NCBI GenBank assembly: GCA_018238155.1
Contig: JABCTZ010000032.1
Location: forward strand, 256,001 to 320,000
DNA length: 64,000 nt
Direction: 5' to 3'
Source: Candidatus Heimdallarchaeota archaeon
GTDB lineage: Archaea > Asgardarchaeota > Heimdallarchaeia > JABLTI01
Position 1 is the stretch's first letter. Each line of letters opens with the position of its first letter. This document shows, piece after piece, positions 26,584 to 27,255 of this stretch. The position numbers and the translations under genes were made by a program. A model generated the notes under the pieces. That model saw only the letters and a program-made list of their open reading frames with translations. It was not told the origin of the DNA and searched no databases.

Positions 26584-27255
26584 GTGAAAAAAATGAGATA
26601 CATATTCGAGCCGGAAATTCTACAAGTTATATGTAAAGAAGTGTTAAAAGATATTGAATACTCAAATTTTGATTCTGAACAAAAGATCAATGAATTATTT
26701 GATAAATTAACTGAAAAATTAGCAAGAGAGTATCCAACTTATATTAAGACAGAAGAACGAAATTGGATCTTTAATAATGCTGGGGGTGCAATGGGCTCAC
26801 TTACGTTATTACATGGATCATTAAAGGAATATCTGATTTTTTTTGGTACGCCTATTGGTACACATGGTCATTCAGGAAGATATCGAAAAGCAGATGTCTA
26901 TGATATAATGTTAGATGGAGAAATGCTATGTTATAATGAAGATAAAATCACTCGAGCAACTTATTTACCTGGTGATATGGCAATTCTAAAACGGAAGTTA
27001 GCAAAAAGCTACCGTATACCTGAAAGAGCTTGGATGTTAGAATATGCACGTGGTGGTATTCCTGCCATGATTAGATTTGGAATAGGCGATAATCTCTATA
27101 GTAATTTTGATTATAAAAGTTCAAATCAGCTCATAAGAAATTATGGTAAAATGGTTTTTAGAAATCTCTTTAAACGAAAGAAGAAAGGAAATATTCCCGT
27201 GAGTGAATTTTATCGGAACCTCATTGCACAAAGTAAAATTGATTCGACAATATAA
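26584..27255 (+). CDS. ERG2 / sigma-1 receptor family protein (C-8 sterol isomerase-like)
   Basis: [59 protein letters not shown].FD match the family signature. Confidence 0.88.
   Translation: [223 protein letters not shown]

Follow-up and report, generated by a model that had tools for sequence, protein, structure and literature searches.

A 64,000-nucleotide stretch of the Candidatus Heimdallarchaeota archaeon contig JABCTZ010000032.1 (positions 256,001 to 320,000; hereafter the window) carries a small gene of the ERG2/sigma-1 receptor family, which lies between a gene for a pyridoxal phosphate (PLP) enzyme and a convergent gene for an ATP-grasp enzyme. The features of the locus are listed in Table 1. 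A first-pass annotation, made from the letters of the DNA alone, had placed the gene at 26584..27255 on the forward strand. The mechanical open reading frame (ORF) at this position (223 aa, GTG start) is present, but its start most probably does not hold. Because the GTG sits inside a GGTGA site and the four nearest homologs (P0002–P0005) begin at the ATG-equivalent methionine (MRY... or MKF...), the true start is almost certainly the ATG at 26593, with a predicted product of 220 aa that begins MRYIFEPE. Residue numbers given here are those of the 223-residue ORF (protein P0001), with the GTG counted as residue 1. The gene is intact and evolves under purifying selection, the ratio of nonsynonymous to synonymous substitution (dN/dS) being 0.12 against the ortholog in genome G086 and 0.16 against a 68%-identical ortholog on contig L103. 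The 141-bp AT-rich spacer upstream travels together with the gene, and TTTAAATA in this spacer is a possible promoter element, judged by the archaeal TATA consensus.

Table 1. Features of the ERG2/sigma-1 receptor family locus (coordinates of the window)
Feature	Coordinates	Strand	Remarks
Anchor-less ERG2/sigma-1-receptor family coding sequence	26593..27255	+	220 aa from ATG, TAA stop included
GGTGA Shine-Dalgarno-like site	26583..26587	+	5 nt upstream of ATG; overlaps GTG of mechanical ORF; read from sequence
In-frame TAG stop	26581..26583	+	directly upstream; excludes N-terminal extension under standard code
TTTAAATA, TATA-box-like element, putative promoter	26476..26483	+	inside 141-bp AT-rich spacer; read from sequence
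Asp107 codon	26902..26904	+	aligns with sigma-1 receptor Asp126
Glu153 codon	27040..27042	+	aligns with sigma-1 receptor Glu172, ligand-binding carboxylate
Amphipathic basic helix (residues 177–195), then polybasic FKRKKK	27112..27186	+	model DSSP, hydrophobic-moment calculation; predicted membrane-surface contact
Extra C-terminal helix, Heimdall clade only	27205..27252	+	predicted local distance difference test (pLDDT) 75–86; occupies place of transmembrane helix in tail-anchored Asgard clade
Upstream flank, Cys/Met-metabolism PLP enzyme	25189..26442	+	Pfam PF01053, E 1.5e-136; syntenic in all 10 other genus genomes
Downstream flank, ATP-grasp enzyme	27289..28512	-	Pfam PF02655; convergent with ERG2 gene; also adjoins 68%-identical ortholog on L103
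Insertion segment (promoter spacer, gene and 33-bp tail)	26466..27288	.	in G000 (the window's own genome) and G086; absent from G088 and seven other genus genomes; blastn junctions, junction sequence

A profile search showed that the protein matches Pfam family PF04622 (ERG2_Sigma1R) with an E value of 8.2e-60 and 202 bits against a cut-off of 21. The match covers profile positions 19–210 of 210, while positions 1–18, the anchor part, have no counterpart in the Heimdall protein. No NCBIfam model matched P0001, P0049 or P0132. When the PDB was searched with phmmer, only sigma-1 receptor chains (7w2b/5hk1) matched, with E values of approximately 1e-28. An AlphaFold2 model, built on an alignment of 81 prokaryotic homologs, reached a mean pLDDT of 92 and a predicted template modelling score (pTM) of 0.90. 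The Foldseek comparison of this model showed that the first 42 matches were sigma-1 receptor chains, with E values of approximately 1e-20, template modelling (TM) scores of 0.77–0.81 and root-mean-square deviations of 2.0–3.0 Å over approximately 194–205 alignment columns (2.1 Å over 197 columns for 5hk1_A); the generic cupins that followed were eleven orders of magnitude weaker. According to the model, the Heimdall protein has the sigma-1 cupin-like barrel with two C-terminal helices. The first-pass annotation had called the product an ERG2/sigma-1 homolog, and the profile and the fold bear this out; all of the family motifs it had quoted are present.

It had also pointed to two retained acidic residues, which are D107 and E153. 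D107 aligns with D126 of SIGMAR1 (VYD versus ISD) and is nearly invariant across the 81 prokaryotic homologs, and E153 aligns with E172 (WMLEY versus WMVEY) and is invariant in all alignments, including those with fungal ERG2 and sigma-1 proteins. Y83 and Y100 are invariant across the same 81 homologs. The buried Glu153/Asp107 pair, which is of the sigma-1 type, is retained. By profile, fold and pocket, the Heimdall protein is a member of PF04622.

No 19-residue window reached 1.6 in a Kyte-Doolittle scan, so that no membrane-spanning helix was found at either end. Because no hydrophobic window exists, the in-frame TAG lies directly upstream and profile positions 1–18 are unmatched, the protein has no N-terminal anchor, as had been stated from the letters; the N-terminal transmembrane helix of the eukaryotic endoplasmic reticulum (ER) form is missing. 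A hidden N-terminal anchor reached by read-through of the TAG was considered and rejected, since what is translated upstream forms no clear helix and is situated on the far side of the Shine-Dalgarno site. A six-frame profile match that starts at profile position 9, with one internal TAG, gains only approximately 2.6 bits (204.8 versus 202.2). Towards the other end, helix 177–195 has a hydrophobic moment of 0.57 and a net charge of +4 and is followed by FKRKKK; the sigma-1 receptor helices that match it lie in the membrane surface (5HK1).

A three-copy structure prediction gave a score of 0.91, compared with 0.00 for the best of three controls; the runs shared at least 95% of contacts and the partner pLDDT was at least 87. 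Of 30 proteins whose solved structure is a pair of one chain, 20 attained that mark, compared with one of 23 whose solved structure is a single chain. The prediction used an alignment made for this analysis, and because the sigma-1 trimer has already been solved, the pass may reflect memory of a known structure. A homotrimer is accordingly modelled for the Heimdall protein, subject to this caveat.

Since the window also encodes a Ribosomal_L13e protein (23828–24478, minus strand), an ESCRT-II EAP30/Vps36 protein (33940–34632, plus strand) and an archaeal RpoD/Rpb3, and since an 86%-identical ortholog is carried on a sequence labelled Candidatus Heimdallarchaeota archaeon, the contig, which extends to at least 320 kb, is truly Asgard and contamination is not an issue. 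The Asgard-type host proposed from the letters was thus correct. A Memo-like gene (29280–30143, plus strand) is a further eukaryote-like gene in the window.

The first-pass annotation had found no sterol-pathway gene in the window, and this holds for the whole of its genome (G000; 4.08 Mb, 90.7% complete). A profile search of G000 yielded no match for squalene epoxidase, squalene synthase (SQS_PSY), p450 or ERG4/ERG24, and no full-length triterpene cyclase was found there. The sole cyclase-type match was partial (33–36 bits) and fell on a 344-aa alpha/alpha-toroid repeat protein, which is not a 650-aa cyclase; the sterol-pathway context in which a C-8 sterol isomerase works was therefore not found in G000. 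The gene of the 344-aa prenyltransferase/cyclase-repeat protein lies at L010:994-2028 on the minus strand (G000:C41, approximately 53.6–55.8 kb), beside a gene (L010:2025-3230, minus strand) for an ABC ATPase with a DnaJ-type CXXCXGXG zinc-finger insert.

A full-length cyclase was likewise absent from all seven other ERG2-bearing Asgard genomes and from ERG2-bearing metagenome-assembled genomes (MAGs) labelled Clostridium, Bacillota, Chloroflexi/Dehalococcoidia, Spirochaetales, Geobacter and Bradymonadales. It was present in the control genomes, namely those of Plesiocystis, a Dadabacterium, a Methylomirabilota MAG, a gammaproteobacterium and a Nannocystaceae strain. Because archaeal as well as bacterial genomes bear ERG2 homologs without a cyclase, the family also lives outside sterol synthesis, with MAG incompleteness as a caveat. 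In the Clostridium-labelled MAG (L087), the ERG2 homolog (5004-5624, plus strand) lies between spore-coat CotF and germination GerA genes (3414-4088, minus strand, and 6130-7722, plus strand), a context that truly places the family in a cyclase-free spore-forming anaerobe.

The distribution of the family among Asgard archaea is patchy. PF04622 profile matches were found in 9 of 400 Asgard species genomes, 5 of 85 genera and 2 of the 11 genomes of the window's genus, which is not the Asgard-wide presence of a signature protein. The Heimdall anchor-less clade itself is small: a set of 5.8 billion proteins yielded five clusters of it at 90% identity. In eight relatives within the genus, the PLP-enzyme and ATP-grasp genes are adjacent without an ERG2 gene, and a three-gene DNA search showed gaps of 45–95 bp between them in six genomes (G081, G083, G084, G085, G087 and G090). 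G088 and G086 are equally close to G000; in G088, the convergent stop codons of the two genes overlap (CTAA; L013 = G088:C25, near 816–842), and the ERG2 segment of approximately 820 bp is cleanly missing, with no gene remnant. The ortholog on L103 (P0005) sits at the same place beside the ATP-grasp gene. In a tree of the ATP-grasp flank gene, the carriers fall in one clade, (L103,(G000,G086,G088)), at 97/97, and one gain plus one loss would therefore suffice for the genus pattern. Thus, the gene entered a sub-branch of the genus as a clean single-gene insertion. Because the G000 and L103 copies are only 68% identical at their shared site, the insertion is old within the sub-branch, and the pattern is thus not one of genus-wide inheritance unless several losses occurred.

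The PLP enzyme and the ATP-grasp enzyme were considered as functional partners and rejected, since they are syntenic without ERG2 in the relatives. The window holds two ATP-grasp_3 paralogs 6 kb apart, at 27289-28512 (minus strand) and 34718-35950 (plus strand), the second with a pre-ATP-grasp domain. The ERG2 homolog of another genome, G032 (L007:9-860, minus strand), runs into a contig end and its frame ends in ...IGRASCRERV; this C-terminus appears to be an artefact of the assembly or of the contig end and not the true one.

A family tree of 93 rows was built using IQ-TREE with LG+C20 and posterior mean site frequencies (PMSF) and is unrooted. The input was drawn from the 50%-identity representatives that an exhaustive search with HMMER returned (769 at E ≤ 1e-3), together with named bacterial loci and Asgard loci. 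P0190 was labelled as a vertebrate sigma-1 receptor (352 bits to 7w2b), P0252 as a Paradermamoeba protein, and P0175 (Eremothecium), P0164 and P0157 (Auriculariales) as fungal ERG2. Clade 'A', with N-terminal helices, was first taken as eukaryotic and turned out to be bacterial. The tree showed that fungal ERG2 nests with sequences of Gammaproteobacteria, Methylomirabilota and Nannocystaceae at 100/99, with all Asgard rows excluded, so that the Heimdall protein is not a member of the clade of characterised fungal enzymes. This nesting with sterol-cluster bacteria agrees with the published view that ties eukaryotic ERG2 to bacterial sterol producers (PMC8237579; PMC2817430). The sigma-1 clade (100/99) is separate from the fungal ERG2 clade. 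The Asgard rows form three clades: the Heimdall anchor-less clade (99/93), a second anchor-less clade (100/100) and a tail-anchored clade (100/100). Their sisters in the maximum-likelihood (ML) tree, weakly supported at 80/87, are anchor-less clades without names. P0180 (202 aa), labelled Candidatus Woesearchaeota (DPANN), pairs with the Deltaproteobacteria MAG sequence P0275 as two long branches; with P0180, the ERG2 family also reaches non-Asgard archaea.

The first-pass annotation had offered two alternatives, a eukaryotic signature protein ancestral to ERG2 and SIGMAR1 or a horizontally acquired isoprenoid- or sterol-binding isomerase. The approximately unbiased (AU) test rejected a single clade of the Asgard sequences and all eukaryotes (log-likelihood difference 74, p-AU 0.0028), so that sistership of the Asgard sequences to the whole eukaryotic family was not found. 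Given this rejection and the nesting of fungal ERG2 with bacteria, a strict ancestor of both ERG2 and SIGMAR1 is rejected, and the second alternative, in the form of a horizontally spread lipid-binding or isomerase protein, is favoured. A weaker form of the first, in which the Asgard sequences join the sigma-1 clade only, is neither shown nor rejected (log-likelihood difference 12, p-AU 0.236).

The closest described relatives of the Heimdall protein are bacterial anchor-less 'ERG2 family proteins' of approximately 186 aa, which occur in MAGs of Myxococcota/Polyangia, Dadabacteria, Chloroflexota, Spirochaetota and Bacillota and in Plesiocystis pacifica SIR-1. These are its nearest non-Asgard relatives by score (45–52% identity, versus 31–34% to eukaryotes). 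They share with it a single domain, an M-x-Y-x-F-x-P start, the lack of an N-terminal helix and the invariant NAGGAMG, GHSGRY, D107 and E153, and many of them likewise occur in genomes without a triterpene cyclase. Unlike them, the Heimdall protein has approximately 14 extra residues between the first two helices and a C-terminal extension of approximately 30 residues, comprising the FKRKKK patch and a helix. It also forms its own narrow clade and, unlike a minority of the bacterial loci, has no steroid-type neighbours.

Tail-anchored Asgard 'ERG2 family proteins' (226–230 aa) occur in Thor-, Loki-, Hod- and Heimdallarchaeota and 'Promethearchaeota' MAGs. Their core is 43–48% identical to that of the Heimdall protein, with the same acidic pair and a KNxFKK motif after the last core helix, and they are likewise patchy and found in cyclase-free genomes. 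However, their N-terminus is extended by a basic stretch and their C-terminus holds a transmembrane helix; the Heimdall protein has neither feature. They also form a separate clade with different gene neighbourhoods. A profile search with Asgard sequences yielded dozens of clusters of approximately 229 aa, and 52 of the 69 newly found proteins have a C-terminal transmembrane helix. Members of this branch, approximately 229 aa long with a basic N-terminus, include the loci L002–L005 and L063 and the proteins P0049, P0053 and P0366–P0428; the Spirochaetes-labelled MAG sequence P0402 falls in a sister sub-branch. Several matches from Thor-, Hod-, Heimdall- and 'Promethearchaeota' MAGs bear the NCBI name 'ERG2 family protein', and a match from a Lokiarchaeota MAG is labelled 'hypothetical protein'. 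The presence of the family in Asgard archaea is therefore already on record in databases, and literature searches on Asgard together with ERG2 or sigma-1 found no paper discussing archaeal homologs.

The sigma-1 receptor (PDB 5HK1, 6DJZ, 7W2B and 8W4B) shares the fold, with amphipathic C-terminal helices, and a homotrimer like that of the receptor is modelled for the Heimdall protein, with the caveat given above. Equivalents of the receptor's Glu172/Asp126, Tyr103 and Tyr120 are kept. By alignment, however, Trp89 is replaced by Ala and Trp164 by Ile. Identity is approximately 31–33%, the Heimdall protein lacks the N-terminal transmembrane helix and is predicted to reside in the archaeal cytoplasm rather than the ER, and the two are not sisters in the ML tree. 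Fungal ERG2, a C-8 sterol isomerase, belongs to the same Pfam family and has the same invariant Glu at approximately 34–36% identity. It differs in having an N-terminal anchor and in carrying Phe where the Heimdall protein has Asp107 and His where the latter has Tyr100, and it works inside a sterol pathway of the kind that G000 lacks.

The neighbours in the other Asgard clades are unrelated to the Heimdall flanks, and no conserved partner gene lies next to any Asgard clade; the neighbours seen include PLP enzyme, ATP-grasp, radical SAM, a DNA_alkylation-family repair protein, LuxE, EamA and GH38. No sterol-related gene was found near the Heimdall copy or any other Asgard copy. Among 79 bacterial loci, no neighbour family recurs in more than eight. 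A KshA/SdmA-like Rieske oxygenase is adjacent in 8 of the 79 loci and a short-chain dehydrogenase/reductase (SDR) in 4; no adjacent SDR was found in the window, and an SDR was rejected as a conserved partner. In the Myxococcota-type loci L058, L033, L041, L052, L057 and L061, an anchor-less ERG2 homolog is flanked by a Rieske/KshA_C oxygenase, which resembles the bacterial sterol C-4 demethylase type, and an AMP-binding enzyme (in L058 the flanking genes lie at 6983-8182 and 4296-5933, both on the plus strand). In the Methylomirabilota MAG locus L098, the ERG2 homolog (6004-6567, plus strand) adjoins the gene of a 648-aa squalene/oxidosqualene cyclase (6753-8702, minus strand), and its bacterial clade is the one that groups with fungal ERG2.

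The sequence comparisons indicate that the gene most likely belongs to the prokaryotic, laterally mobile part of the ERG2/sigma-1 family. Lateral spread is favoured because the distribution is patchy, both across Asgard genomes and within the genus, because the gene is a clean single-gene insertion and because one gain and one loss are enough. It is neither a signature protein of Asgard archaea at large from which ERG2 and SIGMAR1 both arose nor a demonstrated ancestor of the eukaryotic proteins. The protein as a whole, read as a laterally spread, peripheral-membrane, trimeric lipid-pocket member of the ERG2/sigma-1 family in a sterol-free Heimdall archaeon, is reasonably probable, with considerable room for doubt.

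On the proposed mechanism, the trimer would dock on the cytoplasmic face of the membrane through helix 177–195 and the FKRKKK patch, and a hydrophobic ligand would be drawn from the bilayer into the barrel. The Glu/Asp pair might then hold a cationic group or a carbocation-like state, in the manner of sigma-1, or shift a double bond by protonation and deprotonation, in the manner of ERG2; the choice between an enzyme and a pure binder is close to even. Because G000 lacks squalene and sterol synthesis genes, its gene content rules out a sterol made by the cell itself as the ligand. The first choice is one of the cell's isoprenoid lipids other than sterols, though it falls somewhat short of being probable. 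A sterol or steroid taken up from the sediment is the second choice, doubtful but still alive because a minority of bacterial relatives adjoin steroid-type genes.

Several points weigh against the reading of a laterally spread, sterol-independent protein. The gene absences rest on MAGs that are 64–92% complete. The G000 and L103 copies, at one site, are only 68% identical, so that the insertion is old, and several losses within the genus may have occurred. The GC and GC3 (third codon positions) of the ERG2 gene equal those of neighbouring genes, so that composition gives no hint of a recent import. The backbone of the family tree is weak (32/92) and the tree unrooted, and so single out no donor or direction of transfer. 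A single clade of all 15 Asgard rows costs only 1.5 log-likelihood units and was not rejected (p-AU 0.456), nor was the grouping of Asgard with the sigma-1 clade, and the groups compared in the AU tests were drawn up with the tree already in view. The Rieske oxygenase and SDR neighbours and the cyclase beside the L098 homolog keep a sterol-type ligand in play, and the mechanism is drawn from homology.

Three other explanations were weighed. First, the protein might be a sterol or steroid double-bond isomerase or a sterol binder acting on sterols, steroids or polycyclic triterpenoids from the sediment or from partner organisms. The only known chemistry and ligands of the family are of sterol type (PDB sigma-1 entries include progesterone and DHEA (dehydroepiandrosterone)-sulfate), the pocket residues are retained, and the full-length triterpene cyclase beside the L098 relative and the steroid-type neighbours in bacterial loci are in keeping with such a function. 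However, Asgard copies have no sterol-related neighbours, genes for the uptake or transformation of sterols were not identified, the Asgard sequences fall outside the sterol-linked ERG2 clade (100/99), and fungal ERG2 differs at the Asp107 and Tyr100 positions, so that this explanation is unlikely.

A second explanation, to which we give the same low standing, starts from the animal sigma-1 receptor, which is thought to be a non-catalytic ligand-gated chaperone or sensor. The Heimdall trimer would change its oligomeric state on binding a small amphiphile and would regulate a membrane partner. In its favour, the Glu/Asp pair resembles that of sigma-1 and not that of the fungal enzymes, and no pathway context points to an enzyme step. 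The trimer model would fit as well, with the caveat that it may echo the solved sigma-1 trimer. Against it, no conserved partner gene accompanies any Asgard clade, hundreds of bacterial homologs keep the same pair, including some whose steroid-type neighbour genes hint at catalysis, and the evidence does not separate a binder from an enzyme.

Third, the Asgard sequences might be one old archaeal clade whose ancestry is common to it and the eukaryotic sigma-1 clade alone (animals, Amoebozoa and others), with ERG2 derived from bacteria and the patchiness due to massive loss. This is quite improbable. Asgard monophyly and the grouping with sigma-1 withstood the AU tests, MAGs with Thor-, Loki-, Hod- and Heimdallarchaeota labels carry homologs, and the KNxFKK motif and an extension after the last helix are common to the three Asgard clades, but the ML tree places anchor-less clades rather than sigma-1 next to Asgard, the family reaches only 9 of the 400 Asgard genomes, and within this genus the gene is a sub-branch insertion. 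Asp107 is kept in Asgard and sigma-1 proteins and is Phe in fungal ERG2, yet it also occurs in bacterial proteins and is hence not a shared derived character. Moreover, the tail-anchored clade includes a Spirochaetes-labelled MAG sequence, and anchors are C-terminal or missing in Asgard and N-terminal in eukaryotes. On the same grounds of tree, patchy distribution and genus-level insertion, it is very unlikely that the Asgard clade is the closest kin of the sigma-1 lineage, that the eukaryotic paralogs have two origins (host sigma-1 and bacterial ERG2) and that the original job was sterol-independent lipid handling.

The preferred reading, a laterally spread lipid-pocket protein, bears on the family as well as on the archaeon. 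Debate continues on the natural ligand and original function of the sigma-1 receptor, a drug target, and the only characterised relative of this receptor is a sterol enzyme. Intact homologs under selection, with the same acidic pair, in Asgard archaea and in several anaerobic bacterial phyla unable to make squalene or sterols show that the fold has a sterol-independent life in prokaryotes. Being small and soluble to peripheral, these versions should also lend themselves much better than the ER proteins to expression, crystallisation and ligand screens. With regard to eukaryogenesis, the message is mainly one of caution, in that present evidence does not justify ranking the gene among the signature proteins derived from Asgard archaea; the Heimdall genome holds a lipid-related gene of bacterial type. 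What the locus offers is a tractable homolog of a drug target in a sterol-free archaeon, with a patchy and probably lateral history.

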